DNA of 64,000 nucleotides from Candidatus Doudnabacteria bacterium (GCA_037200925.1 JBBCGO010000001.1:760235-824234), one strand, 5' to 3'; shown: positions 21,401 to 50,856, numbered from the stretch's first letter. Numbers and translations: made by a program. The notes: a model not told the origin generated them from the letters alone.

Positions 21401-23357
21401 CGCCAATACAGGAGGAGGCGGCGGCGGCGGCAGCGGTTCCGGCGGCAGCGGCATTGTTATTATTCGTTATCTTATACCGGTTCTAGAAGCCACTCCTCCG
21501 GTCGTTTCAGCCTTTGATGTGCAGCCGAGAAATGGTTCAAACGCAGTTACCGCAACTTTCACAGCCACTGATGCCGGAGGATCGCATCTTCTGAAAGCTG
21601 ACCTCTGGAAAGCTGTCTATGATGTCAGCAACTGCAATCCTGCGGGCAGCACTGCCGGCTGTAACTTCGGAGCAACTCCGGTAAACTCAGTCAATGCTCC
21701 GGCTGGCTCGGATGGCCCATGGAGCAGCTCTATGCTTGATAATGCCGCGGGGTCTGTGGTCTATGGCCTGCATGTTTATGACAATTCTGGCAATACCGGA
21801 TTTGAGCCGGCAAAGATCAGAGTTGATGCCCCGGCAGCATTCGCCACAGGTGGCACTATTACAAGTTCTGGCTTCAATGAGATCCATACCTTTACGTCGA
21901 GTGGGACTTTCACGCCCAGCGGTTCCGGGTCGATTCAATATCTGATAGTCGGCGGCGGAGGCGCAGGAGGCAGCGGCAGCGGCGGCACGGGCGGCGGCGG
22001 CGGAGGCGGGGGAGGAGTGCAAACCGGCACGCTGGCAGTTACTGCTCAACCCTACACTGTAACAATCGGCGGCGGCGGGGCAGGAGGTGCCAGCTCTGGA
22101 GCGAACGGTTCTAATTCAGTATTTGCATCTATCACTGCTACCGGCGGCGGCGGCGGCGCTACTTATGGAGTTGCTCCCGGAAACGGCGGTTCCGGCGGCG
22201 GCGGCGATTATAACGGAGTTGCGGGAACCGGTACCTCGGGTCAGGGTAACAATGGCGGATTGGGTTCCACTACTTCTACTTACGGCGGCGGTGGTGGTGG
22301 AGGAGGTGGTACTGCTGGAGGAGCCGGCAGTGCTACTGTTGGCGGAACCGGCGGCGCGGGTTTTTCGAGTTCCATTTCCGGCTCAGCTATCTTCTATGCC
22401 GGCGGCGGTGGAGGAGGCATTGTAAGCGGCACTCCCGGTCTTGGCGGAGGCGGCGGAGGAGGCGCGGGCGGAGCCGCTGGAAACGGTACCAGCGCTACAC
22501 CCAACACCGGCGGCGGAGGAGGCGCGGGCGGAAGCTCATCAGGACTTGGAGCTGCCGGCGGTTCCGGAATTGTTATTATCCGGTATAATCCTAGTCCTAG
22601 TGCATTTTTGCTGACCTCAGGCTCCTCTTGGACGGTTCCTGCTGGAGTTACAAGTATACAAACATGGGCAATCGGCGGCGGCGGTGGGGCAGGAGGAGCC
22701 GGACCCGCAGATGCCTCAACTGGTAGCGGTGGTGGAGCGGGAGGAGTAGCCTATAGTGCTTTTACTGTATCTCCTGGGGCGACTGTTTCTTATAGTTTGG
22801 GCAGCGCAGGTACAGGGGGTTCCGGCTGCGCCGGCGGTTCGACCGGTACGGCCGGCGGAAATACTACTGTGACAGTAGGCGGAGTAACCATCACCGGAAA
22901 TGGCGGCGGGGCGGGCGGCTGCAATACGGGAGTCGGCGGTACGGGTGGAAGTTTCAGCCCTAGCGGTGCAGCTGGCGCAGCCGGTCAAGGTGTAACTGGC
23001 GAAGGAGGGGGAGGATACGGCGGCGCAATAGGCGGCGGCATTGGTACCGCAGGAGGCAATGCCGGAAGTACAGGCGGTCAAGCTGTGGATGTTTCGGGCT
23101 CGAATGCGGTAATATCTGCGGCAGGATTCAGTACTTCGTCTCCTGGTGTTGGAGGCGGCACTGCTAGTACCCCTGCAAACGCGGTGAATGGAACGAGCGC
23201 AACGGGAGTAGGCGCGGGCGGGGGAGGAGCAGGTTGGTATGGGGGAACCGGAGGAAACGGTCTGTATGGAGGAGGCGGAGCAGGCGCTGCGGGATATCAA
23301 ACTAGTACGACGGGCGGAGCGGGCGGAGCCGGAGCAGTTCTTATAACATTCCCTTAA
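15474..23357 (+). CDS. Giant (2,627 aa) pilin-leader-fused, glycine-rich repeat surface protein (putative pilus-associated adhesin)
   Basis: N-terminal prepilin signal 'GFTLIEAVVATAVF' plus a ~165-aa pilin domain. About 6 repeats follow, each an Ig-like module 'PPVV(T/S)AFDVQPR...TATFTATD(S/A)GGSHL' plus a Gly-rich module 'SGTFTV...YLVVGGGGAGG...'. Two copies of a ~120-aa lectin-like segment ('GYVEFTY...DIDFGIKLQQS...VFRIAVVGGVVQYSRNGTVFYT'). Local GC is far above the flanking DNA. Confidence 0.75.
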   Translation: MNLKPITRNLRSDSGFTLIEAVVATAVFAFVVTSILGVYISTIQLDRKSRAQRAVAQDARFIMEFLAKEVRNGTINYPSYASSTVSGTSDLYIQNQANVVEHFFLSGTNMLINKGGANANMNSSGTKVTNLLFYIQPTTDPYTPAKSANDQPHVTVVLDLQSNYGTAAKDTVTMSLQDSFATRQYPLRVFGAGYTTPLYTTPTYPTPASGFATGGAVSTSGSNTVRTFSTSDTLTVFSAGTIQYLIVAGGGGGGQADGAGGGAGGVITGQMSIAAGTYPIIVGGGGTGATGSCLISGDTGSSGSNSSFHGLTAIAGGGGGSYGTSGLNGGSGGGGGAGNGAATAGLGTPNQGHDGMNSNNPPFGGGGGGATAVGGGWTAAAGIGGAGIPSDITGATVYYGGGGGGGANSANGSGGTGGVGGGGTGGTGGGGGNGINGTGGGGGGGGRINTVPNPTCSGGGTGGNGVVLIRYLTNPDITPPVVTAFDVQPKFTSGAVTATFTTTDSGGSHLKDAELWRATARSNCTTTDDSGCNDWAAVESEVAVSDVVWTSLVNTTATGNTLTKTGGAVGTNDAGAVSTRTIDSGDGYVEFTYNGSGFGGFVDGGLSNGNTDQSVADIDFGIKLQQSNFFYAEENGVPKGSAGSYVVGDVFRIAVVGGVVQYSRNGTVFYTSVQSPTYPLLFDTSIKELNSSIANAKIASTVSDSWTGNLTDTPPANIAEVYGLRVHDNAGNTGFQQTKIMVGEVTPPVVTAFDVQPRTTSGSVTATFTATDSGGSHLKNAELWRATARTNCTISDNSGCNDWAVAANTTIPANNVVWTSAVNATATGNTLTKTGGTDGTYDAGAVSTQTIGTDGGYVEFTYASGTGLMAGGLSNGNTDQSDADIDFGIKLQQSSFFYVYEKGVQKGSTGTYAVGDVFRIAVVGGVVQYSRNGTVFYTSVQSPTYPLLFDTSIGGSNNSISNAKIYYPSLDSWSGTMTDTPPTDTSYIYGVHVYDYSGNFGLEPAKIFVSSTSYGVTTSGFYTVYTFTISGTFTVASPQSVQVLVVGGGGGGSGSASGGGGGGGGAGGYNYNANYSVTPGSYSVTVGAGGAGGVANVRANAPNGSNSSFGTITSIGGGGGNGWTDPKASNGGSGGGAEWGDTVGLGTAGQGNNGGLASTTAPASGGGGGGGAGAVGGAGSSTNGGNGGIGLANSITGTSVYYAGGGGGGSTNAAGSASAGGLGGGGVGGKVSAGSPGTAGTGGGGGSGSNGLAGGAGGSGIVIISFLTTPDTTLPVVSAFDVQPRTASSSVTATFTATDSGGSHLQKANLMRAVYDASTCTTTVNTGCVWSVASTITAPAAADTWNAGSSPPAMFSEIPPAASYIYGIQVYDNAGNFGLEPAKIKVDAFGLSASGGTITTSGGVTTATFTTSGTFTVSGSGTIDYLVVGGGGAGGAGGGVGGGGGGAGGVFSGSMAVTAQAYPITIGAGGAGGGAAVGPKGSNTVFGAITALGGGGGGNYCNNATNGASGGGGSYNCTAGTGTAGQGHDGGAGSTDSPYGGGGGGGVSGSGGAGSNTNGGAGGAGIASSITGSPVFYGGGGGGSISSGPPGPGGSGGGGAGGSGASNGTNATPNTGGGGGSGSGAGGSGVVIIRYISPVVEGIAPVVSAFDVQPRSGSNLATATFTATDAGGSHLQKADLWRAPYDASVCNPAGSTAGCNFGASPVDSVNAPPASDGPWNGTLHDYAVGSLVYGLHVYDNSGNTGFEPAKIKVDGHAAFATGGTITTSGIYAIHTFTSSGTFTVIGSSPASVDYLVIGGGGAGGGAGNPGGGGGGAGGMRNGSLAVSPQSYTVTIGGGGASVGANGSNSVFGSITALGGGGGGTYGSAAASGGSGGGGSYTYSVGNGTSGQGNNGGSGTTNSPYGAGGGGGAGAVGGAGSASVGGTGGAGASSTISGATVFYAGGGGGNVSSGTSGPGGAGGGGAGGLGGAGTNGTANTGGGGGGGSGSGGSGIVIIRYLIPVLEATPPVVSAFDVQPRNGSNAVTATFTATDAGGSHLLKADLWKAVYDVSNCNPAGSTAGCNFGATPVNSVNAPAGSDGPWSSSMLDNAAGSVVYGLHVYDNSGNTGFEPAKIRVDAPAAFATGGTITSSGFNEIHTFTSSGTFTPSGSGSIQYLIVGGGGAGGSGSGGTGGGGGGGGGVQTGTLAVTAQPYTVTIGGGGAGGASSGANGSNSVFASITATGGGGGATYGVAPGNGGSGGGGDYNGVAGTGTSGQGNNGGLGSTTSTYGGGGGGGGGTAGGAGSATVGGTGGAGFSSSISGSAIFYAGGGGGGIVSGTPGLGGGGGGGAGGAAGNGTSATPNTGGGGGAGGSSSGLGAAGGSGIVIIRYNPSPSAFLLTSGSSWTVPAGVTSIQTWAIGGGGGAGGAGPADASTGSGGGAGGVAYSAFTVSPGATVSYSLGSAGTGGSGCAGGSTGTAGGNTTVTVGGVTITGNGGGAGGCNTGVGGTGGSFSPSGAAGAAGQGVTGEGGGGYGGAIGGGIGTAGGNAGSTGGQAVDVSGSNAVISAAGFSTSSPGVGGGTASTPANAVNGTSATGVGAGGGGAGWYGGTGGNGLYGGGGAGAAGYQTSTTGGAGGAGAVLITFP

Positions 23358-29335: not shown

Positions 29336-29955
29336 TTAATAAGTTTAGTCAAAACAAACAATTAATTTGATAAATAGGGCATAAATTATGGTTAATCAGG
29401 ACATTTTCACGATAAAGATAGGCGGTTCCATGAACTAGCACGCATTTTTTATGTGTGTGTGAGCATGACCCGCCAAAAGGCGGTTTTTTGTTGGAATTTA
29501 TATCTAGGATTCACTGCTTCCCCGCACAGCTTGACTTAAGCAGGGTCTGAAAGCAAGCAGTGGATTCTGGACGTAAAGGTTAGCACTTTGGACAACTAAC
29601 CGGCATCAAAAGAAACATGTTTTGCCGAATGCGTATGGGAACTGATGAGGTTCCGGTAGGCGCAGACGGACAGATTAATTTCTGAACATGTTTGAATCCA
29701 AGTCCTCGTCATGTAAACGGGCAAATAATAAGTAATTAGTAATCACTATTGCTAGTCAAATATATTATGAGGAAAGAACCTTCGGTTCTCTCCTCATCGC
29801 GCCCGTCGCAGAGCCGATTTTGCTTCGCAAAACAAGCGCCGCTTACTCCTCTCTCCTCCAAAAAGGAAAAGGAGCAGGCTGCTTGCCGAACGAAGTGAGG
29901 TCAGCTTTGCTGACAGCCGATGAGGGAAAACCGCAGGTTGTCCCTCATAACTTGA

Positions 29956-33321
<3,366 letters not shown>

Positions 33322-33519
33322 TTAATTCAAAATTAAAATTTTCCTCAGAAAATTTTATCCCGAGGATATATTTCTTGGGAAGGTTTTAGTTTTTTTGACT
33401 AGCAGTTAGTGATTATTAAAAATTACATAATTGTGTGCTGGGTAATGGAGTTGGGCGGATATGTTGTTGACGCGAAACCGGCGTGCGGAGTTTCTACCGT
33501 CCACGTTTCGAGGTTAGCG

Positions 33520-33943: not shown

Positions 33944-34046
33944 GGGCGTGTAGCTCAGACGGTAGAGTGCTGAATTAGGATCGACTTTCTTTGCCATGTC
34001 GTCTCCTGATCAGAAGCCGCAGGTTCGAGTCCTGCCACGTCCACCA
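33944..34046 (+). tRNA. Atypical tRNA-like gene (103 nt) with about 27 extra nt in the anticodon-arm region; isotype undetermined
   Basis: Canonical acceptor (GGGCGTG/CACGTCC), D-arm 'TAGCTCAGACGGTAGAGT', T-arm 'GCAGGTTCGAGTCCTGC' and an encoded CCA. There are 34 nt between the anticodon-stem halves 'CTGAA'/'ATCAG', including the hairpin 'GGATCGAC...GTCGTCTCC'. Confidence 0.5.
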
Positions 34047-35492: not shown

Positions 35493-35792
35493 ATGGTTCC
35501 CACCTATGAGGCCTATATTGAAGACGAGGAGTCAGATGCGGAAAATGACGAGATCGAAGAAGTGATCACCGACATTGAAGATGAGTGTGCCTTAGTTTTT
35601 GACAACGAGGCCAATGGCAAAATGCTGAATGAAATTTTTGACGCCGCCAGGGCTAATTATGAAAAAGACCGCAGCGGTTGGAAAAGCTTTTTCGGCGACT
35701 TGAAGTTCGAATTGATCGCAACTGATGATGAAGACAACCTGCGGGATATTCTCTCTCATCATTTAAGAAAGGCCAGGCTGGAATTAAGCTGA
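35493..35792 (+). CDS. Hypothetical acidic protein
   Basis: 99 aa, very acidic N-terminus (EDEESDAENDEIEE). Stop overlaps the start of the next gene. Confidence 0.4.
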   Translation: MVPTYEAYIEDEESDAENDEIEEVITDIEDECALVFDNEANGKMLNEIFDAARANYEKDRSGWKSFFGDLKFELIATDDEDNLRDILSHHLRKARLELS

Positions 35793-37099
35793 TGCGAATC
35801 ATCGCTGACCTACAAATCCATTCAAAATACTCCCGAGCGTGTTCCCAGGACCTGAATCCTGGGAACATTGGTAAGTGGGCGGATAAAAAAGGCATCCAGG
35901 TGATCGGCACCGGAGACTTTACGCATCCCAAGTGGCTGGCGGAACTCAAAGATGCTTTGGAAGAAACCAAGCCCGGGCTTTATCAGCTCAAGGACAGATC
36001 CGCAAGGGCTTATTTTATGCTGACCGCGGAAGTGTCGTCTATCTATAAACAGGGCGACAAGGTCCGCAGGATCCACAATATGATCTTGGCCCCGAATTTT
36101 GCAGCAGTTGAAAAGATAATTGCGGGTTTGGAAAAAACAGGCGCCAATCTTAAGTCCGACGGCCGGCCGATCATGGGCGTGAAGTGTCCGGACCTGGTCA
36201 AAATAGTTTTAGATGCAGATCCCGGGAATGTGATCATTCCGGCGCATGCCTGGACCCCGCATTTCGGGTTGTTCGGCTCGCTTTCAGGGTTTGACACGAT
36301 CGAAGAAGCCTTCGGCGACCAGGCAAAGCATATTTTTGCGATTGAAACCGGGTTGTCATCTGACCCAAAGATGAATTGGCAGATCTCGAGGCTTGATAAT
36401 TATAGTTTGGTATCCAATTCTGATGCGCACAGTTTGCGGAAGATCGGCCGCGAAGCCAATGTCTTTGAAATTCCTGAAGAAAAATTATCATTTGATGAAA
36501 TTATCCGGGTGATCAAAGATAAAAACCCAAAAGAATTTTTGTTTACAATAGAATTCTTCCCGGAAGAGGGCAAATATCATCTGGATGGGCACGCGGACTG
36601 CAAGTTCTCCTGTTTGCCGAAAGAAACCAAGCGATTGAAAGGAATTTGCCCGGTTTGCGGCAAGAAATTATTGATCGGCGTTTTAAACAGGGTTGAGGCG
36701 TTGGGGGATAGGGAATTCGGCTTTATCCCAAAACGCGCAATTCCGTTTAGAAGTGTTATTCCCTTGGAAGAGGTGATAGCTGAAACATACGGCACCGGTA
36801 TTGGCAAAAAAGTTTTGGAAACATATGAACGAATGGTTAGTAACGCCCCCGGCGCTGTCGCGCCACCCCCTCTTAATTTAAGAGGGGGTAGGGGGAGTTA
36901 TTATACAGAGTTTGAGATACTCTTAGATTTACCACGAGAGGAAATAGTAAAAATTTCCGACCCGATTGTGGCAGAATCAATCATCCGTATTCGGGAAGGC
37001 AAAGTCCGCATTGAAGGCGGGTATGACGGAGTGTTTGGTAAAATCCATATATATTCTGACGAGGAAAGAAAGAAAGCCGAACAGCATAGTTTGTTTTGA
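35792..37099 (+). CDS. PHP-domain nuclease of the EndoQ / TIGR00375 family (putative deaminated-base endonuclease)
   Basis: N-terminal 'ADLQIHSKYSRACS...GTGDFTHPKW' PHP motifs and a C-terminal Zn-finger 'C..C...CPVCGKK'. Length 435 aa matches EndoQ. Confidence 0.5.
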   Translation: MRIIADLQIHSKYSRACSQDLNPGNIGKWADKKGIQVIGTGDFTHPKWLAELKDALEETKPGLYQLKDRSARAYFMLTAEVSSIYKQGDKVRRIHNMILAPNFAAVEKIIAGLEKTGANLKSDGRPIMGVKCPDLVKIVLDADPGNVIIPAHAWTPHFGLFGSLSGFDTIEEAFGDQAKHIFAIETGLSSDPKMNWQISRLDNYSLVSNSDAHSLRKIGREANVFEIPEEKLSFDEIIRVIKDKNPKEFLFTIEFFPEEGKYHLDGHADCKFSCLPKETKRLKGICPVCGKKLLIGVLNRVEALGDREFGFIPKRAIPFRSVIPLEEVIAETYGTGIGKKVLETYERMVSNAPGAVAPPPLNLRGGRGSYYTEFEILLDLPREEIVKISDPIVAESIIRIREGKVRIEGGYDGVFGKIHIYSDEERKKAEQHSLF

Positions 37100-37240
37100 A
37101 TATTTAATCGCAATTCCGAACTTGTTTCGGAATCTCAGATTAAAAGACCCTGAACCAAGTTCAGGGTTGCGATACGAAACCCCAGGCCTTGACATGGGCT
37201 TGGCTTTTTTGATAGGTTGGAAATATCCAAGGAGGCGAGC

Positions 37241-37538
37241 CATGGTGGGGAGTTTCGAGTCCGACGCGCAGCCGCAGTTCTGCTCCGATTGTGAAATCAA
37301 AATGGTCTTTGTGCCGGGCACACAGACCGACGGCGCCCATTTCATCTGTCCGAAATGCGGGTCTACGATGCCTCATCCGACTCCACTGCCGCTGATCCCT
37401 TTCACTGCCGCATGCTTCCAAGCCTTTTGGCTTCGGCCGCATCCGCTGCTGGGAAATCAGATCCCGGCCGACGTTTGGCTTCAGGGCCCTGAGATGCGGG
37501 AGCACATCAGGAATCTTCTGGGACTTGAATGGTCCTGA
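37241..37538 (+). CDS. Small zinc-ribbon protein
   Basis: RBS AGGAGG then ATG at 37241. 'CSDC...CPKC' 4-Cys ribbon. GC-rich. Confidence 0.45.
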
Positions 37539-37554
37539 CGTCAGGGTCAACACG

Positions 37555-37598
37555 CGACCAAACCAATCGGTGAGGTCGTTCTTTTTTTGTGATATAAT
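37555..37598 (+). repeat. Terminator-promoter cassette, copy 1 of 4 (hairpin 'CGACC...GGTCG' + T-run + extended -10 'TGATATAAT')
   Basis: Conserved core '...CGGTGAGGTCGTTCTTTTTTTGTGATATAAT'. Related copies at 38473, 38781 and 39275. Confidence 0.6.
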
Positions 37599-37640
37599 TT
37601 TGGCATGAGATGATTGTTTGATTTTGCTGCAGGAGGTTTT

Positions 37641-38456
37641 ATGCCAGAGGCGAAGTACTGCGGCCTGGATAGCCCGGCTCCGGACGGACTAAGGTTCCTA
37701 CCGAAAACGAATGTCTATGACCGCAACATGTTGGCGCATCTGACGCGCGAACATGTCACGATGCCCGAACCTCAGATCAAAGAATTCGTGGAAGCCGTCA
37801 CGCCCGATATGCGTTCGGAGTGGGATGCGGAGAATCTCTGTCGATTGCTGGTCATCCAGCCGCGGCAAGCAGGGTTCGCCTCATTCAGTCCGGAATTTGA
37901 GGCGTGTGAGGCACATTGGCGCCGCGACGAACTTGATCATTTTCGCATGTTCAGCCTGCTGATCGGTCTGCTGACCGGCAGATCAGCAGAAGCTATCGAA
38001 GCCGAGATGCGGCCGGAGGATCCTGATTACACGAATCAGAGACCGATCATCGGCCAAGAGCTTGAGATCGCTTTGGCCCTGGCATGGGACGAGTTCTTTA
38101 CGACCTACTACTACGGCCAGGATCGCGCTCTTTATCGCGCGCTTGGCCATCCCAAATTTTTGCGCTGGTTCAACCAGGTCATCAGGGACGAAAAGCTCCA
38201 CTTCGATAATTTCAGTTCGGTCGCCATCAGCTGCCATGCGAACAGAGCCTCGGAATTTCCGGCGATCATCGATCGGCTGGAAAGCATGGAGCTGGCCCGG
38301 TCAGAATCCCGCCAACTCGGAAAACGAGTCGATTTCCGGACATTCCTCATGGATCGGGGAAACTCCGAACAGACTCCCAGAGAGATCAAGCGCCTAAGCT
38401 CGCAATTTCGGAAAGCCATCACCGGCAAACTGAAGCTCGCGCAAGAGTTCGTTTGA
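37641..38456 (+). CDS. Hypothetical protein with ExxH motifs (possible ferritin-like/diiron fold)
   Basis: RBS GGAGG then ATG at 37641. 'DELDHF', 'DEKLHF' and 'EACEAH' motifs. 272 aa. GC-rich. Confidence 0.35.
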   Translation: MPEAKYCGLDSPAPDGLRFLPKTNVYDRNMLAHLTREHVTMPEPQIKEFVEAVTPDMRSEWDAENLCRLLVIQPRQAGFASFSPEFEACEAHWRRDELDHFRMFSLLIGLLTGRSAEAIEAEMRPEDPDYTNQRPIIGQELEIALALAWDEFFTTYYYGQDRALYRALGHPKFLRWFNQVIRDEKLHFDNFSSVAISCHANRASEFPAIIDRLESMELARSESRQLGKRVDFRTFLMDRGNSEQTPREIKRLSSQFRKAITGKLKLAQEFV

Positions 38457-38472
38457 TTAAAGCGGCCAAACC

Positions 38473-38518
38473 CGACAACGGGCGAGGTCGTTTTTTATTT
38501 CTGCTGAAGCATTGACAT
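38473..38518 (+). repeat. Terminator-promoter cassette, copy 2
   Basis: 'CGACAACGGGCGAGGTCGTTTTTTATTTCTGCTGAAGCATTGACAT'. Confidence 0.55.
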
Positions 38519-38561
38519 ATGTCCGGGTTTTTGCTAGGGTTGGGGTTGTAAGGAGGCTCGG

Positions 38562-38763
38562 CATGAGTACGTTTCGACTTCCGGCAGAAGTGAGCCTGAT
38601 GATTGGAATGGCGATTCCTAGAGATAAGCGCAGGCAGTTTTGGACAATGCGCAATGAGCTGCTTGGCAATCAAAGCCCTCAGCAGATCTGGCGTTCAGGC
38701 GCTGCGGGCCGAAAGAAGATCCGTGAGTTTATCCTCGCGGCCAAAAGCGGGGACATAACATGA
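38562..38763 (+). CDS. DUF2384-like (Xre/ParS/MbcA antitoxin C-terminal domain-like) small protein
   Basis: RBS AGGAGG then ATG. 'RQFWTMRNELLGNQSPQQIWRSGAAGRKKIREFILAAKSG' fits the W..N..LGG..P..L..G pattern of DUF2384. Confidence 0.4.
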
Positions 38764-38780
38764 CGGACAGCGGCTAAGCC

Positions 38781-38850
38781 CACGGGCGAGGTCGTTCTTT
38801 TTTTTGTTTCTGCGGAGCATTGACTAATGCTTGGTTTTCTGATATACTTT
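38781..38850 (+). repeat. Terminator-promoter cassette, copy 3 (TTGACT-17-TATACT)
   Basis: 'CACGGGCGAGGTCGTTCTTTTTTTTGTTTCTGCGGAGCATTGACTAATG...GATATACT'. Confidence 0.6.
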
Positions 38851-38887
38851 ATTGTTCAGCGAATTTCCGCTGGCATCCAAGGAGGAG

Positions 38888-39259
38888 CATTTGGCAAAAA
38901 AACGATACCCAAAGTCAAAGTTGCGGACGTATAAAAATCCCGATAACCTAAAGACGGCGGAGCGAGCTGAGCGTGAAGCCAAATTGCTCCGGAGATTGGA
39001 TCAACGCGCTTTATTTATACCGGCTTCGCTGATGCTGTCTTGTAATGTCCTCACACCCGAAGGCCGCATGAGGATATTTGGTTTGGGCAGGCTTGAGACT
39101 GACAGTTTCGGATCAGACATCAAAGGTCTGAGCACCGACTCGAATGTACTGCGAATCATAAAGGAGCGTCTGGCTCAGAAGATTCGTCCGGGAGAGCAGG
39201 AAGTGGTGGTCACTCTTCGCTTAGGGAAGAAAGGACAGGGGGTTCGAGTCCGTCTGTAA
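38888..39259 (+). CDS. Hypothetical protein (probable TTG start after GGAGG)
   Basis: The -10 element at 38841-38848 lies inside the listed ORF start (38852), so the TTG at 38888, 5 nt after GGAGG, is the likelier start. No recognisable domain. Confidence 0.35.
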   Translation, partial: HLAKKRYPKSKLRTYKNPDNLKTAERAEREAKLLRRLDQRALFIPASLMLSCNVLTPEGRMRIFGLGRLETDSFGSDIKGLSTDSNVLRIIKERLAQKIRPGEQEVVVTLRLGKKGQGVRVRL

Positions 39260-39274
39260 TTGATGTTGCTTTAT

Positions 39275-39333
39275 GCGACCAAACCCCGATAACGGGCGAG
39301 GTCGTTCTTTTTTTGTTTTTTTGATATACTTAG
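39275..39333 (+). repeat. Terminator-promoter cassette, copy 4
   Basis: 'GCGACCAAACCCCGATAACGGGCGAGGTCGTTCTTTTTTTGTTTTTTTGATATACT'. Confidence 0.6.
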
Positions 39334-39336
39334 CCC

Positions 39337-40080
39337 ATGCAAAAATATATCGCTGTTGTAAATCCGCGGATGGATGATGACGAAATTTCCAGTCTGATCG
39401 CCAAAGATATTGCCGGCGCGCTTTTTGAGATCTCACATCAAAATTATCCGCTGGCCGCGAAGATCATTCGGCAGATAAAAGAGCAAAGCGCTTTGCATAA
39501 CCGGCCGATCAGCATTATCCAGGATGTTTCGAACATGGAAGACCCGCTTGATCTGCAATTTGGGCTGCGAAGCGGGGTGGATTGGGTGGCAACTGACCGC
39601 CCTGAGCACGTTAGATTGTCCAAAGGGTTTAATAAACTGCCTGGTGTGATCTTTAAAGGCCGCGATCTGCCGAAACGCCTGCGCGTGGATAGTGTCATGG
39701 CGGACGGTTTTTTGGATCCTGATGCTGAAGTTATCGGGATGCAAAATGGGCAGATCAAGCACTTGATCTCGGAACATCCTGACCAACGGGTTTTGGATGC
39801 ATTAGCAGATATCCTATCTTATGCCGCAACTTCGGCAATCGCTGTGTCTGATCTTGACCTGGCGAAGGCTTTGTCTTTCAGGCGTGCCAGTAAGAAAATA
39901 TTTTTTGCACCCAAGGATAAGAGTGCTGCAGCCCGGGGCGGGATTTATTGGGGTGTTTATCCGATCTATATGGGCAACGATCTTATTTCGAGCCTCAAAA
40001 ATACCCGGTTTGTAAAAAAAGGAGAACGCATGGTGGATGCCACTAATATTAAGCATGTTGCAATTCATTCGATCCCATGA
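39337..40080 (+). CDS. Truncated/degenerate pyruvate-kinase-like protein (247 aa)
   Basis: 'DLQFGLRSGVDWVATDRPEHV' resembles the PK '(D/E)..F(G/A)...GVD(F/W)VA.SF(V/I)R...DV' block. The C-terminus 'VAIHSIP' resembles the PK C-terminal domain. The central catalytic region is missing. Confidence 0.4.
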   Translation: MQKYIAVVNPRMDDDEISSLIAKDIAGALFEISHQNYPLAAKIIRQIKEQSALHNRPISIIQDVSNMEDPLDLQFGLRSGVDWVATDRPEHVRLSKGFNKLPGVIFKGRDLPKRLRVDSVMADGFLDPDAEVIGMQNGQIKHLISEHPDQRVLDALADILSYAATSAIAVSDLDLAKALSFRRASKKIFFAPKDKSAAARGGIYWGVYPIYMGNDLISSLKNTRFVKKGERMVDATNIKHVAIHSIP

Positions 40081-44598: not shown

Positions 44599-44640
44599 TA
44601 AAAAAAGAGGAGAGTACAAACATTGATGTTTGTACTCTCC
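44599..44640. terminator. Bidirectional hairpin terminator between rpoD and the convergent hydrolase gene
   Basis: 'GGAGAGTACAAACATTGATGTTTGTACTCTCC', with an A-run on the plus side and a T-run on the minus strand. Confidence 0.6.
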
Positions 44641-44674
44641 TTAAGTATTGTTCTAAAACCTCCTTAAGATTTTA

Positions 44675-47329
44675 TTACTTGCTTACTGACAAAGTCACGA
44701 ATCCGGAACTCAGATTCCCGGGATTATTAATGACCTTGAAGTAAACGGTGCCGACCAAATTCCATTGAACGTTGGACAAAGTGAGCTGCCCTTCGTTATT
44801 GAAAGTGGTTGCGGCCGGATAACAAGTAGTGGTTGCGGGTCCGCATGCGTACGCCTGTGACCCGTTGACGAAACCAGAACCGATGAGCGTCACCGTGAAT
44901 GGCTTGGCAGCGTGCGGTGCGATGTTTGTCGTCAAGCGGCTGAGCACCAGCGGTTTTGGAATAGGCGCAAGATAGACGAAATACGAGATCGTCGTTCCTC
45001 CCGCCAGATTCTGGGTCGCTGACGGCGAGATCGAGCTGATGATGAATCCGGAGGGAGCCATGCATACAAGCGCATAGTTGCCAGCGGGCTTTCCGGTCAG
45101 GTTCATCGGCGCAACCGTTGCAACTCCATTGAGCGTGCATCCGATGTTGCCATTGCCGCCGATCACATAAAGGTTGATCCCTCCTGTTGGCGGCAATTTC
45201 GTGAGCGTAACTGTGAAGCTCACCGTTCCTCCGCCCAGAAGGTTCTGGAAAGAGGTAGGTGAAATTGAGGTTACGGTGTAACCAATCGGAGCGACGCATG
45301 ACGACAAGGTATAGTTGCCAATAGTCTGATTACTCAAACTGGTAGGAACGCTACTAATTGTCTGGGTGCCCGAGGGTTTCGTGAGAATGCAGGACAGGCC
45401 GCCGTTGAGAACCGCTCCATCCTTGATGCCAAAGATGTTGACGGTGCCGGTGGGCGGAGCCGTAACCGTTATCGCGATTTTGGTTTTGGCGATCAGATTG
45501 CCCATCGTTGCCCAGAATTCGAAGCTGTATGTTCCCGGGATGGTGGTGGGACCCGGGGTGAGAGTGGCCTGGACAGAGATGCTTCCGTTTGCGGCGATCG
45601 CAATCTGACCTGACGTGTAGCTGTTGTAGCTGAAGCCGGCAGGACAAGCCAGCGAGCAGTAGAAATTCACAGTCACGTTTCCGGCTGTGTTGTTCTTCGG
45701 TTGCAGAGTTGCGCTGGCAGACACCAACTGTCCGGCAACCACAGATTTGGTCTGTGTATCCGGCGTGAAGGTGAGGGTTGGCGGTGGCAGGGCGACAGTG
45801 AAACTGTCCGAAGGATTCGACCAAGCTCCGGCATCGGTGTTGCGGAACTTAAAGAAGTAGCTGCCCGCGCCCAGTTGGAGGTTGTGCATCGTCAGACTAA
45901 TGCTTGTGACATTAGTTACCCCAACATCAGGATGTCTGCAACCGGCAGGACATCCGTTGGAACCAAATACCCAGACCTGGGTTTGTCCGAGAACAAAGTT
46001 GGTTCCGGTTCCCAAGGCGTCAAAATTCGTATTTGCAATTGGTGCGAATACCGCAATTTTGCCAATGGTGGGTTGAAGCGGCGCAGGCTTGTTGATCTGC
46101 ACTTGGCAGGTGGCTGTGACTGTCTGTTTGGGATTGCCGCTGTCGGTGACCGTGAAGGTGGCCGTGACAGTGCCAGCCTGAGCCGAAGTCGGTGCGGTAT
46201 ACGCGACAGAAGGAAAGCCGCCAGAAACAGCGCCTCCCCAACTGTGAGTAACCGTGCCTGTACCAAAGGAGTAGCTGCTGCTAAAGAGAGTGGCTTGTCC
46301 CGGATAGAGAAAGGCAGGGCTGGCGGAGCAGGAGGCCGTGAGGGGCGGGATCGGCGGGCCGATAGGCACGACGGGGAGCGAGGCTTCCATCTGCCGGTAG
46401 ATCTGTTTTTGAGTGGCAGAGCCATCGGCCATGTACCTAGACAAGTCATGGCCAGCTATTCCGTAGCCGATTTTGATCGCATCCCCAATCGCACCAAAAA
46501 GGCTTAGGAAAGCATCATCAACGGATTTGGCAAAGCAGGAAAGCCCGATATCATTTACATTCCAAGGCAAAGCTTTCTTAAAGCCGGCCATGCTCGGAGT
46601 CAGATAAATGAAATCACTACATTCTGTGGTATACATCTGCCTACCGTCAGCCACGTAGTTGGCGGGGGTGGCAATTGCAATCACAGAAAGTTGATTGGAA
46701 TCGGGCAATTTCTTCCCCTTACCATCAGCGTCTCGCAGACGGATACCATATTCCAAGTTGGCGTAAAAATTGCCTTGGCTATGGCCGACTAGCACCACGC
46801 GATAACCTTTGGCCCATAAGTCAAGTACAGCCTGATCCAAGGTTGCCAGGTCAGGATCGTCTTTGAACTGATCCTCTTGGAACTCCAAGGCACCGGCCAT
46901 AAAAGCTATGTGCGCCTTAGGATTGGTGTTCAGCAGGCTTGAGTCATTGAGATACTTGTCCACCTCCGAGAGAGCCATCTGGTCAATTGCCTGTGCGCTG
47001 TCGCCCTTTAGCAAAAAGGTCTTGAGCTTGCCAGCGCTATGGTTGTAGAGAGGATAGAAGATAGTGGTGGTGGTGTCGAGCATGGGATGAGCAGCGAAGA
47101 ATTTTTTTCTCATATCTTCGACTGTGTTTGCCCACACCACGTTGCCAGGTGTCAGAACGCCGTTGATTTTCTGATCGGTGACCAAAACCCCATTCACCCA
47201 GATGAACACAGCGCAGGTCCCGACCTTGAGACATGGTTGAACTGTCGTTGCCTGCGCCATTGCCTGGGCACTGGACAAAACCAGCAGACAGAACAGAATC
47301 ACGGTACGAACGAAACTATTTCTCATCAT
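44675..47329 (-). CDS. Secreted alpha/beta-hydrolase (GHSQG nucleophile elbow; lipase/esterase-like) with C-terminal Ig-like/beta-sandwich repeats
   Basis: Signal peptide 'VILFCLLVLSSAQAMA'. 'VVLVGHSQGNFY'. Multiple 'TATFTVTDSG'/'TVT' beta-rich repeats. GC-rich. RBS AGGAGG. Confidence 0.6.
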   Translation of the reverse strand: MMRNSFVRTVILFCLLVLSSAQAMAQATTVQPCLKVGTCAVFIWVNGVLVTDQKINGVLTPGNVVWANTVEDMRKKFFAAHPMLDTTTTIFYPLYNHSAGKLKTFLLKGDSAQAIDQMALSEVDKYLNDSSLLNTNPKAHIAFMAGALEFQEDQFKDDPDLATLDQAVLDLWAKGYRVVLVGHSQGNFYANLEYGIRLRDADGKGKKLPDSNQLSVIAIATPANYVADGRQMYTTECSDFIYLTPSMAGFKKALPWNVNDIGLSCFAKSVDDAFLSLFGAIGDAIKIGYGIAGHDLSRYMADGSATQKQIYRQMEASLPVVPIGPPIPPLTASCSASPAFLYPGQATLFSSSYSFGTGTVTHSWGGAVSGGFPSVAYTAPTSAQAGTVTATFTVTDSGNPKQTVTATCQVQINKPAPLQPTIGKIAVFAPIANTNFDALGTGTNFVLGQTQVWVFGSNGCPAGCRHPDVGVTNVTSISLTMHNLQLGAGSYFFKFRNTDAGAWSNPSDSFTVALPPPTLTFTPDTQTKSVVAGQLVSASATLQPKNNTAGNVTVNFYCSLACPAGFSYNSYTSGQIAIAANGSISVQATLTPGPTTIPGTYSFEFWATMGNLIAKTKIAITVTAPPTGTVNIFGIKDGAVLNGGLSCILTKPSGTQTISSVPTSLSNQTIGNYTLSSCVAPIGYTVTSISPTSFQNLLGGGTVSFTVTLTKLPPTGGINLYVIGGNGNIGCTLNGVATVAPMNLTGKPAGNYALVCMAPSGFIISSISPSATQNLAGGTTISYFVYLAPIPKPLVLSRLTTNIAPHAAKPFTVTLIGSGFVNGSQAYACGPATTTCYPAATTFNNEGQLTLSNVQWNLVGTVYFKVINNPGNLSSGFVTLSVSK

Positions 47330-47426
47330 TCCTCCTATGGGATCGGCAAAACAAAAAACACCGCCAGTCTTAGGATTAAGAATTGTTTGTGTTTATATTT
47401 TAGAGTTTTTTTTCCCCTCCTAGCTA

Positions 47427-47438
47427 CCAGTAATTACT
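47427..47438. promoter_or_regulatory. Perfect 12-bp palindrome CAGTAATTACTG with flanking ACCAGTAA direct repeats, upstream of the hydrolase gene
   Basis: Operator-like. Lies 100 bp upstream of the ATG at 47329 (minus strand). Confidence 0.3.
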
Positions 47439-47470
47439 GATAACCAGTAAGGGAAAGAAAAAGCATTTAT

Positions 47471-48055
47471 TTAGTATTGGCCTTGGACTAGAGGTTGGGT
47501 GCAGGCCTGGATCGTTCCATAAACTGGATTTCCGTAAGGAAGAGCTGTATTACTATTTTCTCTAGCTTTTTGGAGACGTTCTGGTGTGTTTCGCACAAGA
47601 CTAATCAAATAATTAGATTTTGAGTGATCTGTCGGACTATTACCAAAAGCTAGGTAATTATAACAATCCAAGAAAGAAAGAGAAGATACTTCCAGTTCCT
47701 TAAAGTGTTCGTGATCGCCAGTGGTGGTAATTATGTCTTGTTCTTTCTTCACCATAGCCCTTAGCACCCTTCTGATTTGGTCATTTTGAGGATACATATA
47801 GACTATTTCTCTTTGTAGATCGTCCCGAACTCCATCATGATCCGAGTCTATGCCAGCCAAAGTTGCTTTCCCAGCTTCTCCTGGATCTGGCGGAAGGACT
47901 ACCGGGACATCAGTAGCCGGGGGAGGAAGACCTCTAGTAGATAGCGGTTGCGGCAGGACCGGGTGATTAGCGCGGTATTGTCTTAAGCCAATTACTGCCA
48001 CTGTCACAGCAATTATTAGTATACCTGCTATCCAATATACTTTGTTCATATTCAT
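47471..48055 (-). CDS. Hypothetical membrane-anchored exported protein
   Basis: N-terminal TM 'VYWIAGILIIAVTVAVIGL'. Pro-rich linker. Confidence 0.4.
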   Translation of the reverse strand: MNMNKVYWIAGILIIAVTVAVIGLRQYRANHPVLPQPLSTRGLPPPATDVPVVLPPDPGEAGKATLAGIDSDHDGVRDDLQREIVYMYPQNDQIRRVLRAMVKKEQDIITTTGDHEHFKELEVSSLSFLDCYNYLAFGNSPTDHSKSNYLISLVRNTPERLQKARENSNTALPYGNPVYGTIQACTQPLVQGQY

Positions 48056-48202
48056 TATTTTAGGTCTTTCTTAGCTAAATTAGCTATTATTGATAATTAT
48101 ATCATCTTTTTTGCCTCCTATATATTGTCAAAGAACGGTATCATGGCTTTCTTGCTTTGAAGCCAAGCTACTTTAACTTGGAAGCATAAGTGATTTTACA
48201 AT

Positions 48203-48400
48203 TGTTGTCAATCATTAACAGCAATTTAAAACTGATTTCTTTTGAACCAAAAAAAGTTGGCGGAAGCCAACTTGTTTTAGCCAATGTTTAATTGCCTTTA
48301 TATTAAATTGTTGGTATATTATAACAGTAGAATCAGCGAATTTCTTTTTGACTAGGCCTACTGTCAGCATTCATAAACAAATATGGACTTATGGCCTAAA
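48203..48400 (+). repeat. About 185-bp direct repeat, copy A (duplicate of the TrmB-like gene promoter/5' end, with truncated start ATGGACTTATGGCCTAAATAG)
   Basis: About 90% identical to 50857-51058. Contains the imperfect palindrome 'TTGTTGTCAATCATTAACAGCAA' and a TATATTATAA -10-like element. Confidence 0.65.
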
Positions 48401-48404
48401 TAGT

Positions 48405-48438
48405 TGAAAAAAGCCGGACGATCGTCCGGCTTTTTTTA
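48405..48438. terminator. Bidirectional terminator (palindrome CCGGACGATCGTCCGG flanked by A-run/T-run), copy 1
   Basis: The same palindrome recurs at 51835-51850. Confidence 0.6.
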
Positions 48439-48464
48439 GTTTTAGAACAATAGTTACTATTACT

Positions 48465-49037
48465 TCATTCATCAAAAATTACTCCTTGTTTAATTAAGAA
48501 GCCTTTCTCGTCTGGAGTAATATTGAGCATCGCAGCGCTTTCGTGGGTTATCACACTTCCAATCATTTGTCGGTTATTGTAGAAAGTAGGATCTTCAAGA
48601 CCATAAAATTGTTTATCGCTATGCGGCCACCAAACTAAAAGAGTCTCATTTAGCTTTTGCTTCATTTTGTCTGACAAGTTAAAAAAGTAATGAACAAATA
48701 ATTTATTTTTATTCCAAACACCTTGTTCAATATCATTGTATTTCGTATTATCCCTTACTTCTTTTACGAAATCTTCTTTCAATTCACTAAATTGCTTCAA
48801 AAATCTCTGTTCCTTCTCAACGAAACCTGGTTCTACTGACGATTTACCCATTTCAAAATTAATAAAATTTAAGAAATTCAATTTTTTTGAAAAATATCGG
48901 GTAAATCTAACGGTATTGGAATTTGTGAAAAAGAAATTCCTGATTGCCGGTTCGGTCGCATCACTTCTGCTAAACCAAACCATATATTCTTTTGTCTTGT
49001 ATTCGTTTTCGTTCATACAGTTGCTTTTTTCTTCCAC
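48465..49037 (-). CDS. Hypothetical cytoplasmic protein (AT-rich gene)
   Basis: 190 aa, GC much lower than its neighbours. No recognisable motif. Confidence 0.4.
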   Translation of the reverse strand: MEEKSNCMNENEYKTKEYMVWFSRSDATEPAIRNFFFTNSNTVRFTRYFSKKLNFLNFINFEMGKSSVEPGFVEKEQRFLKQFSELKEDFVKEVRDNTKYNDIEQGVWNKNKLFVHYFFNLSDKMKQKLNETLLVWWPHSDKQFYGLEDPTFYNNRQMIGSVITHESAAMLNITPDEKGFLIKQGVIFDE

Positions 49038-49576
49038 CTCCTGTGAGTGAAATATGAACCAATAAGAGCAATCACCCCACCTAAAACAAAGTAAGATGGG
49101 CTCATTATCAAAATTACCAATAGGGGCAGTAATAAAACTAATAACTGTGCTTGTGCAGTTTTCAAAGAATATAGGTATGTTTGTTCAATTTGACCCTTAA
49201 GCATATTTGGATTTTTCTTTAATGCTTTGAAGATCACTATATTTCGTAGATGATTAGCATTGATATATACCATCGTAGTAAACAATAAACCTGGGATTAT
49301 GGCAAAACTTTGAGAGTTATAAATAATATTCTTTTGAGATAAATAATAAAATAAATAGATAAGCAAAGAGACTAAGACTACATACAATAAATGACGGAAG
49401 TTATATTTAAATTCCGCAACGTTTTTCTGAAACATTGGATTCATTTCGTAATTATCAGCTTTAATATGTTCAGAATAACCTTGTGTATATAATCTTGCCC
49501 CTTTAATGGTCAAATAAAAATCTAAGAACATTAGAGCGGCTGTTACGATGATTATAAAGAATACATTGTGGATCAT
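49013..49576 (-). CDS. Hypothetical integral membrane protein (AT-rich gene)
   Basis: 187 aa, 4-5 TM. Overlaps the downstream gene by 25 nt. Confidence 0.4.
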   Translation of the reverse strand: MIHNVFFIIIVTAALMFLDFYLTIKGARLYTQGYSEHIKADNYEMNPMFQKNVAEFKYNFRHLLYVVLVSLLIYLFYYLSQKNIIYNSQSFAIIPGLLFTTMVYINANHLRNIVIFKALKKNPNMLKGQIEQTYLYSLKTAQAQLLVLLLPLLVILIMSPSYFVLGGVIALIGSYFTHRRWKKKATV

Positions 49577-49686
49577 AATGGTTTTAACATAAAATATTCT
49601 AGAGTTAGTATACTTATATATTTATTTAAGATTACTAAAAGAAACTACTAGTGGCATCGTTCCTAGCAATTCCGCGGGTTTTTATA

Positions 49687-49914
49687 TTATTTTTCAGTTT
49701 TAAAAATGTCAGATACAAAGTAACAATGATAGCCCATTTTTTCAATAGCGACCAGGAGTTGTTCTTTAGTAGTACCAAACTGGGGATCATACGCAATTTC
49801 AATAAAGCCAGTATGAATTCCGACCCAAAGAACACCCGGTAAATCTATACCATTGTCAAAATCCTCATTGCTATCACTGCGAAGATTGTCTACTGTAAAA
49901 GTTAATATATTCAT
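49687..49914 (-). CDS. Hypothetical small protein
   Basis: 75 aa, no motif. Confidence 0.3.
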   Translation of the reverse strand: MNILTFTVDNLRSDSNEDFDNGIDLPGVLWVGIHTGFIEIAYDPQFGTTKEQLLVAIEKMGYHCYFVSDIFKTEK

Positions 49915-49983
49915 ATATTGATAAAATTTAATAAGTAGACCAGTGGTATAGAGATTTTTCTATACCACTGGAGATGACCGGGC

Positions 49984-50700
49984 TTACAAAGCGAGGAGCA
50001 AACCCCAGATTGCACCGGCGATTGTGCCTGCTGCTCCCGATAACAACCATGAATAAAGGTTGATTCCGACAGCAGAGAGCGACTGTTGCATAGCGTTCTG
50101 GATAACGATCTGCAGATCGTGGAAGTTCGGACAGGGTGGAGTGGCCAAGCAGAGCCACTTATTCCGAGAATCGTAGATCACAAATCGTTTGCAAACAACG
50201 CCACTGCCATTTCGTGTTGTAGCCGTCCCAATGTGCAGATGCGACCACGCTTTTGAATCCGGTGTGTTTACATTTGCCTTGATGGTGATATGGAAATGAT
50301 CCACTGGATTTGTCACACATGGGGCAAGCGGATGAGGCGGTTCACTGTCGTGAGAGCCGACGTAGATGTATGCGACACCAAGATTTACACCCACATCACT
50401 TGGGTTCAAACGGCCGTTAGTTCGTGACTGCAAACTGCCGTCAGTGAGGTTCAAGCCAATTTCGCCACCAGCGGCGACAATCGCTTCCAATCCTGCGGGG
50501 TCGATTTGCTGCCCGGCAGGATTCGAGATCGTCGTCGTACCATCCGGAGCTACAGTGACTTGGTATGCTCCTGATTGAGAGCTGGCGCCAGGAGGGGAGT
50601 CAGCCATGATTTGGCTTGGTTGAGTCGACAGCTTGTTGCATCCAACCATACCCAGCATAGAGAGAGCGACGAGTACGACGAGTGCTCTTCGTTGTCTCAT
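49984..50700 (-). CDS. Putative lipoprotein
   Basis: Signal peptide with lipobox 'LGMVGC'. 238 aa. Confidence 0.45.
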   Translation of the reverse strand: MRQRRALVVLVALSMLGMVGCNKLSTQPSQIMADSPPGASSQSGAYQVTVAPDGTTTISNPAGQQIDPAGLEAIVAAGGEIGLNLTDGSLQSRTNGRLNPSDVGVNLGVAYIYVGSHDSEPPHPLAPCVTNPVDHFHITIKANVNTPDSKAWSHLHIGTATTRNGSGVVCKRFVIYDSRNKWLCLATPPCPNFHDLQIVIQNAMQQSLSAVGINLYSWLLSGAAGTIAGAIWGLLLAL

Positions 50701-50856
50701 TCTATCATCCTACCTTTTGAAGCCGTTGTCAATTAGGACTAAAAACAGTCCTGTGAAGCGTCTCTTGAGATCCTCCTTGAATCTGAAAAAAGACAAATCG
50801 ACCGCGATGTTTGGATAGGTCTTTTTGTCTTTGATTTAAGTCTACGCTATTAAAGT

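Follow-up and report, generated by a model that had tools for sequence, protein, structure and literature searches.

The phage moron concept, reportedly due to Hendrix and colleagues, is that of an autonomous promoter–open reading frame (ORF)–terminator unit between conserved genes, and we know of no morons that share homologous punctuation conserved at a site in relatives. Integron cassettes are generally promoterless, and an attC site combines an inverse core RYYYAAC and a core GTTRRRY within a bulged hairpin of 57-141 nt; CALINs are attC clusters without an integrase. Arrays formed by sequential displacement at a conserved anchor are described for the orphan immunity genes of the V. cholerae type VI secretion system and for orphan modules of Rhs and contact-dependent inhibition systems, with homologous or homology-facilitated illegitimate recombination as the route (PMC5361080). 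Here we analyzed a 64-kb stretch (the window) of the 964-kb genome of a Candidatus Doudnabacteria metagenome-assembled genome (candidate phyla radiation, CPR/Patescibacteria). We focused on positions 37.1-39.3 kb, where small genes alternate with a recurring terminator-promoter cassette between a PHP-domain gene and a degenerate pyruvate kinase (PK) gene.

We consider it rather probable that this region is a hypervariable accessory-gene slot, running from the PHP gene to the (degenerate) PK gene, with conserved punctuation and four moron-like units that have built up at a recombination hotspot. On this explanation, the locus is a gene-swapping hotspot and not a new molecular machine, and it would be a variation on known hotspots, morons, and displacement arrays in a poorly studied lineage. 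A first-pass annotation of the same DNA had described the cassette and its genes; what the sequence comparison adds is a lineage-wide hypervariable slot, in which the punctuation is conserved and the cargo changes.

The units resemble phage morons in having their own predicted sigma-70-type promoter, a predicted factor-independent terminator, and a composition unlike that of the neighbours, all placed between two conserved genes that they leave undisturbed. They differ in that the host is a CPR chromosome and not a prophage, the flanks are housekeeping and rRNA genes, four units stand in tandem, and homologous punctuation is found across units and kept at the same site in relatives. With displacement arrays the locus shares a conserved upstream anchor, a variable string of unrelated small genes, and junction remnants (a copy of the PHP 3′ end in the related locus L053). 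However, the slot cargo is not made of effector/immunity pairs, what repeats at the junctions looks like a functional terminator-promoter module and not a gene fragment, and our searches saw no donor allele of O1, O3, or O4 (cargo genes listed below). Like integrons and CALINs, it lines up unrelated short ORFs in one direction, with a conserved hairpin-forming repeat after every ORF; it differs in that it has no attC core sites, its hairpins are shorter and carry a T-run, each unit has a promoter and ribosome-binding site (RBS), and no integron integrase was found in the window.

The slot and its anchors comprise the following features, where promoters and terminators are predictions and GC3 is the GC content of third codon positions:

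35792-37099, plus strand: left anchor gene, PHP-domain protein (NCBIfam TIGR00375, E=2.3e-45; Pfam PHP_C)
37146-37168, plus strand: hairpin ACCCTGAACCAAGTTCAGGGT after the PHP gene, probably its terminator (fold; terminator scan, which also scores on the minus strand)
37182-37218, plus strand: module M0, hairpin CCAGGCC...GGCTTGG with the -35 TTGACA (37189-37194) in its loop, then a T-run and the extended -10 TGATAGGTT (37210-37218) (sequence, fold, terminator scan)
37242-37538, plus strand: O1, 98 aa; GC 0.58, GC3 0.67; AGGAGG at 37230-37235
37554-37588, plus strand: terminator T1, hairpin GCGACC..ACC-AATC-GGT..GGTCGT and T7 (repeat family, fold, covariance model 54.2 bits)
37590-37598, plus strand: O2 promoter, perfect extended -10 TGATATAAT right after the T-run, no recognisable -35 (repeat family)
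37641-38456, plus strand: O2, 271 aa; GC 0.56, GC3 0.66; AGGAGG at 37631-37636
38462-38500, plus strand: terminator T2, hairpin GCGGCC..CCCG-ACAA-CGGG..GGTCGT and T6ATTT (-17.1 kcal/mol, z -3.5)
38512-38540, plus strand: O3 promoter, a copy of M0, with TTGACA, 17 nt, TAGGGT, and TG at 38532-38533 (alignment with the region ahead of O1)
38563-38763, plus strand: O3, 66 aa; GC 0.53; AGGAGG at 38551-38556
38770-38805, plus strand: terminator T3, hairpin GCGGCT..GCC-CACG-GGC..GGTCGT and T8 (repeat family, terminator scan, fold, covariance model)
38820-38848, plus strand: O4 promoter, a copy of M0, with TTGACT, 17 nt, TATACT, and the TG (promoter and motif scans)
38891-39259, plus strand: O4, 122 aa, TTG start, basic N-terminus; GC 0.50; AGGAGG at 38880-38885
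39275-39314, plus strand: terminator T4, hairpin GCGACC..CCCG-ATAA-CGGG..GGTCGT and T-run (repeat family, fold, covariance model)
39322-39330, plus strand: promoter of the PK-like gene, TGATATACT, ending 6 nt ahead of the ATG, leaderless mRNA predicted (sequence)
39337-40080, plus strand: O5, 247 aa, right anchor, PK derivative; GC 0.48, GC3 0.49; no Shine-Dalgarno (SD) site

Slot variability and conserved punctuation

At the level of the locus, a metagenome scan gave 80 PHP-related loci (designated L), and the left-anchor PHP gene was kept in all 80, the relatives having 45-85% identity. For the slot comparison, we used the clade of loci with PHP identity of at least 74%. The PHP-to-PK(-like) distances of distinct loci were 221, 331, 453, 696, 718, 759, 833, 1121, 1277, 1544, and 2241 bp, and the window presented the largest of these eleven values.

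The content of the slot changed from locus to locus. L050, L055, and L058 each had one small SD-bearing ORF, and L056 had another small ORF beside one for a zinc-ribbon membrane peptide. L065 encoded an 85-aa protein together with a GC-rich one of 169 aa, L100 a membrane protein of 96 aa, and L053 a protein of 231 aa; in L049 there were only palindromes. In the slot of L104 (11814-12396), a 64-aa ORF overlaps the PIN-domain gene that follows it (134 aa; PF13470, E=1.7e-6), and from its sequence this pair looks like a VapBC-type toxin-antitoxin (TA). In an all-vs-all BLASTP, the cargo proteins were unrelated, except for O1/O3 and one family found in L052, L065, and L104.

The upstream module and/or the downstream terminator-promoter were kept despite the differing cargo in L050, L055, L056, L058, L065, and L100. 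Upstream, a hairpin with TTGAC in its loop, TGCTTGG, a T-run, and TGATAnnnT follow the PHP gene in the window, L050, L056, and L100, and a motif scan recovered this M0-type module in the same relatives. Downstream, a hairpin ending in GGTCGTT with a T-run stands ahead of the predicted leaderless promoter of the PK-like gene in the window, L050, L055, L056, L058, and L065, and T4 is orthologous to the terminator at this position in the latter five loci.

The terminator was nearly confined to the slot. Its core, GGTCG(T/C)T plus T4, had 12 matches in 885 kb of related DNA, eight of them 0.1-2.2 kb downstream of PHP, and a covariance model gave the same distribution. The ninth match closes a GC-rich, SD-bearing helix-turn-helix (HTH) gene between ruvA and uvrB in L011. 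As far as the sequence was scanned (the 64-kb window and the 885 kb), the cassette is not the generic terminator that the first-pass annotation had named as a possible refutation. A scan of a genome collection with the 19-mer gave 22 singletons, about the chance number, only L011 being meaningful, and a scan of viral contigs with the terminator core gave 24 singletons. Two viral matches to the promoter module, in AT-rich giant-virus contigs, lay inside coding sequence and were set aside as chance.

The L011 gene (840-1434), from another Doudnabacteria genome, encodes a GC-rich 128-aa protein with an HTH domain (HTH_32/HTH_29, like a transposase N-terminus) in the ruvA-uvrB gap. It has its own TTGACA promoter, an SD site, and a terminator; the 3′ half of this terminator matches the window copies exactly.

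Two observations bear on the movement of cargo. In L053 (2728-3605), a 14-codon remnant of the PK N-terminus comes after the 231-aa cargo gene and is fused to a second copy of the PHP 3′ end (the last ~35 bp) with its -10 box; judged on its sequence, this junction is the kind of scar that recombination anchored in a conserved flank would leave, with an irregular join on the other side. A homologue of this cargo gene lies in L078, 7.6 kb upstream of PHP. In addition, a 44%-identical homologue of O2 was found on a syntenic CPR contig upstream of PHP, that is, on the other side of this gene, and therefore cargo genes relocate.

Palindromes of the form CACCCTCTCC...GGAGAGGGTG were seen in the slots of L049 (3270-3400), L052 (11760-11810), and L065 (4770-4880). 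L065 also has an insert flanked by inverted repeats (CACCCCCACACC...GGTGTGGGGGTG) within the 3′ end of its PHP gene. By sequence, these palindromes and the insert may form a family of miniature palindromic elements.

At the level of the single copy, the two-tier hairpin GCGRCY...CGG(G/T)(C/G)GAGGTCGTT with a T-run occurs four times in the window (37554, 38462, 38770, and 39275), and nowhere else in these 64 kb, to which all counts of repeat copies refer. A repeat finder returned one four-copy direct family (37556-37588, 38468-38500, 38772-38804, and 39282-39314). The 12-mer GGCGAGGTCGTT was found at these four sites only with 0-1 mismatch, and two further matches with 2 mismatches are at chance level for 64 kb. 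The four copies share 72-85% pairwise identity, begin 7-16 nt past the stop codons of O1-O4, and are co-directional with them.

Each hairpin is 26-32 nt long, with an outer stem GCGRCY/GGTCGT, an inner stem of 3-4 bp, fold energies from -13.4 to -17.1 kcal/mol, and T6-8 directly after it. The inner stem varies between copies yet remains paired (ACC/GGT in T1, CCCG/CGGG in T2 and T4). Across 17 distinct sequences, the outer-stem pairing was kept with changes on both sides, 99% of cells being paired in an alignment fitted to the model, and in L050 CC/GG is replaced by CT/AG (compensated AGATCGT arm). The best reading of T1-T4, from the hairpin, the T-run, and the position after the stop codon, is that they are intrinsic (Rho-independent) terminators.

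The extended -10 motif TGnTAnnnT follows every T-run of T1-T4 (TGATATAAT at 37590, TGCTAGGGT at 38532, and TGATATACT twice, at 38840 and 39322), and TGATAGGTT at 37210 precedes O1. A -35 TTGAC(A/T) is present in three of the five intergenic regions (37189, 38512, and 38820) with a spacing of 17-18 nt. These motifs predict sigma-70 promoters with an extended -10, and the one ahead of O4 is the best sigma-70 match of the region (10/12). The recurring cassette of the first-pass annotation, a terminator hairpin and T-run fused to an extended -10, was thus recovered in four copies by folds and motifs.

The downstream promoter part of the cassette is common to subsets of copies only. Numbering the intergenic regions (IG) from IG0, ahead of O1, to IG4, ahead of O5, IG2 and IG3 share the whole terminator-linker-promoter composite (common TTTCTGCnGAGCATTGAC, 30/39), and IG0 has the same promoter type and is homologous to them (42/61). 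TGATATAMT is common to IG1, IG3, and IG4.

The PK-like genes of the relatives have the layout seen in the window: GCTATAAT, 5-7 nt, and ATG. The -10 box (TATACT or TATAAT) stands 5-7 nt ahead of the ATG of the PK-like gene in the window (39322-39339) and in L055 (11565-11581), and the same spacing was observed at uvrB in L011 (1446-1470). From this spacing, leaderless mRNAs are predicted for core genes of the lineage.

A bifunctional design recurs in which a terminator-like hairpin carries the -35 in its loop and the T-run serves as spacer to the extended -10 (window 37182-37218; L055 6535-6590; L100 11296-11335). A second type of hairpin-promoter, AACAGCAtttatgTTATACTATAAGTGCTGTTTTT, holds the -10 in the loop (L052, L053, L100, and L104).

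Cargo genes, resident gene, and composition

Exact look-ups of the proteins assigned the window to a 964-kb contig (JBBCBH010000057.1), on which the array proteins are annotated as MEJ0021818-22, O4 being MEJ0021821.1. The first-pass annotation counted five genes in the array; in our analysis the fifth (39337-40080) has a GC content of 0.48, no SD site, and conserved orthologues in relatives. O5 matches TIGR01064 over residues 3-65 only, and BLASTP against the full PK of L049 aligned its first ~65 residues, a short DLEFGL motif, and the C-domain. Its PK barrel domain (PF00224) is incomplete, with little of the catalytic barrel left. At the same position, L049 encodes a full 454-aa PK (PF00224 at 1e-105); a full PK is also kept in L052 and L104, and O5 orthologues are present in L055, L056, L050, L058, and L065. 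The truncated PK-like protein named earlier is therefore borne out, and these alignments indicate that O5 is a resident, internally deleted PK derivative and not cargo, so that the array holds four cargo genes. Judged by the same sequences, glycolysis may be truncated in part of the clade.

O2 is the cargo gene with the most informative relatives. An exhaustive HMMER search found 165 relatives at E<=1e-3, mostly of 240-275 aa and aligning end to end, the nearest being 44% identical, whereas a word-indexed search with O2, O4, or the O1/O3 profile gave self matches only. Residues E60, E97, H100, E184, and H187 are invariant and E151 is nearly so, which yields the ExxH motifs E97xxH100 and E184xxH187; the ExxH-motif protein of the first-pass annotation is thereby placed in a family. 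The AlphaFold2 model built with the alignment is all-helical with a mean confidence (pLDDT) of 92.7, and the single-sequence model, with a pLDDT of 38, was not usable. Its best PDB folds were R2-like ligand-binding oxidase (R2lox), acyl-acyl carrier protein (ACP) desaturase, and ribonucleotide reductase (RNR) R2, with template modelling (TM) scores of about 0.45 and 11-16% identity.

Because of the invariant residues, the confident model, and the PDB fold matches, we class O2 as an intact ferritin-like di-iron carboxylate protein of an undescribed family, with two E...ExxH motifs. The likeness to known ferritin-like di-iron proteins (R2lox, acyl-ACP desaturase, and RNR R2) lies in these two invariant motifs and in the helical bundle. 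The difference is that the TM score is about 0.45, no Pfam or NCBIfam family cutoff is reached, and the neighbourhood is not conserved: the gene neighbourhoods of O2-family members that we examined held lone genes in varied contexts and gave no functional clue. Among 60 relatives, only sub-threshold Rubrerythrin and FA_desaturase_2 matches appeared.

O1 combines an N-terminal CxxC...CxxC zinc ribbon, as first annotated, with a C-terminal FW..LLGNQxP domain that it shares with O3. The C-terminal half of O1 aligned with O3 in BLASTP at E=2e-8 (38% identity over 34 aa), and the homology reaches through the promoter, the leader, the SD site, and the first codons, the upstream regions being ~69% identical. 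By these alignments, O1 and O3 are paralogues, promoter and 5′ untranslated region included.

For O1, O3, and the joint O1/O3 profile, Pfam gave no match even at E up to 10, and neither did NCBIfam at E up to 0.1, a library expected to include the MbcA/ParS model; sequence and profile searches of the PDB also found none. The DUF2384-like antitoxin (PF09722/TIGR02293) proposed for O3 had no backing there. O4 is an orphan, for which the homologue and family searches found no relative and gave no signal of the RES/ART-like toxin fold suggested for it. PADLOC had no match for O1-O5, and the proposed defence function found no backing there. PHROG matched none of O1-O5 except one at E=0.07, and Rfam returned nothing relevant at the gathering threshold and only a chance microRNA match at E<=1. 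Overall, O2 is a di-iron oxidase-like enzyme, O1 and O3 are small domain-sharing proteins, and O4 is an orphan; nothing indicates joint action.

Two T-loop strings like those of tRNAs (GGTTCGAGTCC, at 37249 and 39238) were considered as remnants of attachment (att) sites and rejected: ARAGORN called no tRNA, and the first lies within the region paralogous between O1 and O3.

At the level of composition, the array genes have a GC content of 0.50-0.58 against 0.47 for the window, as the first-pass annotation had noticed, but the excess is modest, since the window itself ranges from 0.32 to 0.62. GC and GC3 drop steadily from O1 (0.58/0.67) through O2, O3, and O4 to O5 (0.48/0.49), a gradient that fits a newest unit beside PHP and gradual amelioration.

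The sharper difference is in SD use. AGGAGG stands 5-8 nt ahead of the start codon in all four cargo genes and at the called start of almost none of the ~50 other window ORFs of at least 100 aa. The strong RBS claimed for every ORF downstream of a cassette holds for the cargo genes but not for O5. This contrast between the cargo and an otherwise SD-poor genome offers a simple way to flag genes that were acquired recently or are translated in a special way. About half of the 16S genes of Parcubacteria, the group to which this lineage belongs, lack the anti-SD motif (PMC9297842). We sought the 16S 3′ end in the window for its anti-SD, and it does not lie within these 64 kb.

The exceptions (47331, 49037, and 50772) cluster in a compositionally odd minus-strand block, 44600-50800. 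Part of this block is extremely rich in AT (GC 0.32 at 48-50 kb), and some of its proteins had no match in Pfam; by sequence, it is probably another accessory island.

Formation of the array and alternative explanations

In the explanation that we favour, each unit would be monocistronic and start from a sigma-70 extended -10 promoter (in three units also with a -35 TTGAC(A/T) within a small hairpin or beside it). Its ORF would be GC-rich, preceded by a leader of 25-45 nt that carries a canonical AGGAGG, and followed by a two-tier intrinsic terminator. The T-run of the terminator would run into the next promoter, insulating the gene from its neighbours and restarting transcription. Each cargo ORF has a strong RBS and its own predicted promoter, so they would be independent transcription units, which was the first-pass view and is still the natural one.

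The punctuation would be a resident feature of the slot, and the cargo between would be exchanged by recombination anchored in the conserved flanks, in the PHP gene or in the terminator-promoter modules themselves. Older units would be pushed downstream as new ones were added. The window array would have reached four units by additions, and at least one step would have added a homologue of a resident unit (O1 and its promoter versus O3 and its promoter).

CPR genomes are tiny and streamlined, and the locus offers a concrete pattern for how they may gain and express new genes: a fixed slot with compact punctuation, where unrelated small genes would be swapped and stacked, each in a ready-made insulated context. 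Should recombination act on the punctuation itself, cassettes would be exchanged by a new route. Otherwise, the locus still illustrates a hotspot cleanly and supplies compact natural terminator-promoter parts.

Several points weigh against this explanation. Promoter and terminator function is predicted from motifs, and two of the four hairpins are only modestly above shuffled sequences (z -1.3 and -1.5). The GC gradient is made up of four genes, and the SD contrast could mark a regulatory class instead of foreign origin. O1, O3, and O4 were found nowhere else in our searches, so that the transfer of these particular genes is putative, and the O1/O3 paralogy could equally be an internal tandem duplication. 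Finally, the scan for further copies within this genome covered 64 of its 964 kb, and our searches met no other genome that carries several units in such an array.

This duplication is the starting point of a purely local origin, in which one ancestral promoter-gene-terminator unit was tandemly duplicated and its copies diverged or were overwritten, with no horizontal input; the hairpins may then be only partial terminators or mRNA-stabilising 3′ structures in one long transcript. It would account for the homology of O1 and O3 down to their promoters, leaders, and first codons, for the 72-85% identity of the terminator copies, and for the moderate hairpin energies. However, O2 and O4 show no relationship with one another or with O1/O3, and the family of O2 is widespread, no member being closer to it than 44% identity. 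Besides, composition and SD use separate the four genes from the remaining window, unrelated cargo occupies the same place in relatives, and a good extended -10 follows every hairpin. We find a purely local origin unlikely.

A narrower variant, the duplication of a two-gene unit (O1-O2 with O3-O4), was rejected: O2 and O4 are unrelated, and the terminator identities gave no clear T1-T3 and T2-T4 pairing. The paralogy of O1, O3, and their upstream regions, together with the resident status of O5, also speaks against the acquisition of the genes as one five-gene block, as first supposed.

Another idea makes the modules themselves mobile. They would provide portable homology, or be recognised by an unknown enzyme, in a CPR-specific cassette system whose units excise between modules and re-insert at modules. 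From their sequences, candidate sites would be the PHP-PK slot, the ruvA-uvrB gap of L011, and the region upstream of PHP in the contig with the O2 homologue. We give this idea little credence; if true, it would be a recombinase-free or novel-recombinase analogue of the integron, delivering ready-to-express genes to minimal genomes.

The first-pass annotation suggested a stress, defence, or TA islet, in which O1 and O3 would be DUF2384-type antitoxins and O2 and O4 toxins or effectors. A small W..LLGNQxP protein followed by a larger protein does occur twice, and the motif bears a likeness, noted by eye only, to the C-terminal motif of MbcA/ParS. The slot of L104, with its PIN-domain gene after a 64-aa ORF, is also VapBC-like. 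Nevertheless, the profile searches with O1 and O3, the lack of a RES or ART signal in O4, and the empty PADLOC result all count against it. O2 is a ferritin-like di-iron enzyme, encoded by a lone gene in varied contexts, and a terminator and a fresh promoter stand between the supposed partners, unlike in co-transcribed TA pairs. Taken together, such an islet is quite improbable.

An integron-like system, where the hairpins would be functional analogues of attC served by an unidentified recombinase and their terminator look would be secondary, appears very unlikely. It draws on the array layout compared above, on cargo that changes among relatives while the hairpin stays, and on the near-identical 3′ half-site (CGGGCGAGGTCGTTTTTTT) at the end of the unrelated ruvA-uvrB cassette of L011. 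In contrast, the slot has no RYYYAAC/GTTRRRY core sites and its hairpins end in GGTCGTTCTTT at the 3′ side; they measure 26-32 nt against 57-141 nt for attC; and each unit has its own promoter, unlike integron cassettes. A tblastn of two tyrosine recombinases against the window, a weak test, gave nothing better than E=0.4, and there was no tyrosine recombinase among the neighbour genes scanned (PHP, PK-like, HAD, NUDIX, and DnaG). Moreover, termination would fully account for the T-run and the position after the stop codon.

That one larger gene decayed into these ORFs, or that the array is an assembly chimera, is extremely improbable: O1, O3, and O4 do lack detectable relatives, but O2 aligns end to end with the 240-275-aa members of its family, which refutes decay for this gene, each ORF has its own SD site and start codon, and the same gene order is found in three assemblies (GCA_037975565.1, GCA_015689235.1, and Logan SRR28211699, the Logan copy being 99.96% identical) and is therefore no assembly artefact.

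Surroundings and minor observations

Upstream of the array, the surroundings include a 23S-tRNA-5S segment, and the housekeeping neighbours on the plus strand are PHP/TIGR00375, HAD, tRNA-Ser, NUDIX, DnaG, and sigma-70. The left anchor, PHP/TIGR00375, we take to be EndoQ-like. This protein has a 19-aa in-frame insertion (NAPGAVAPPPLNLRGGRGS; window 36847-36903) that is missing from four relatives and is encoded by a GC-rich palindrome (CCCCCTCTTAATTTAAGAGGGGG). From its sequence, the insertion resembles a small palindromic element that entered a conserved gene without shifting the frame.

The 23S rRNA gene (29955-33329) measures 3375 nt against a model of 2925 nt, and it contains insertions. 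An Rfam tRNA match of ~100 nt at 33944-34043 was not called by ARAGORN and is possibly an intron-containing tRNA. Finally, a giant ORF of 2627 aa (15474-23357) reaches a GC content of 0.62, well above background, and has many internal AGGAGG strings.

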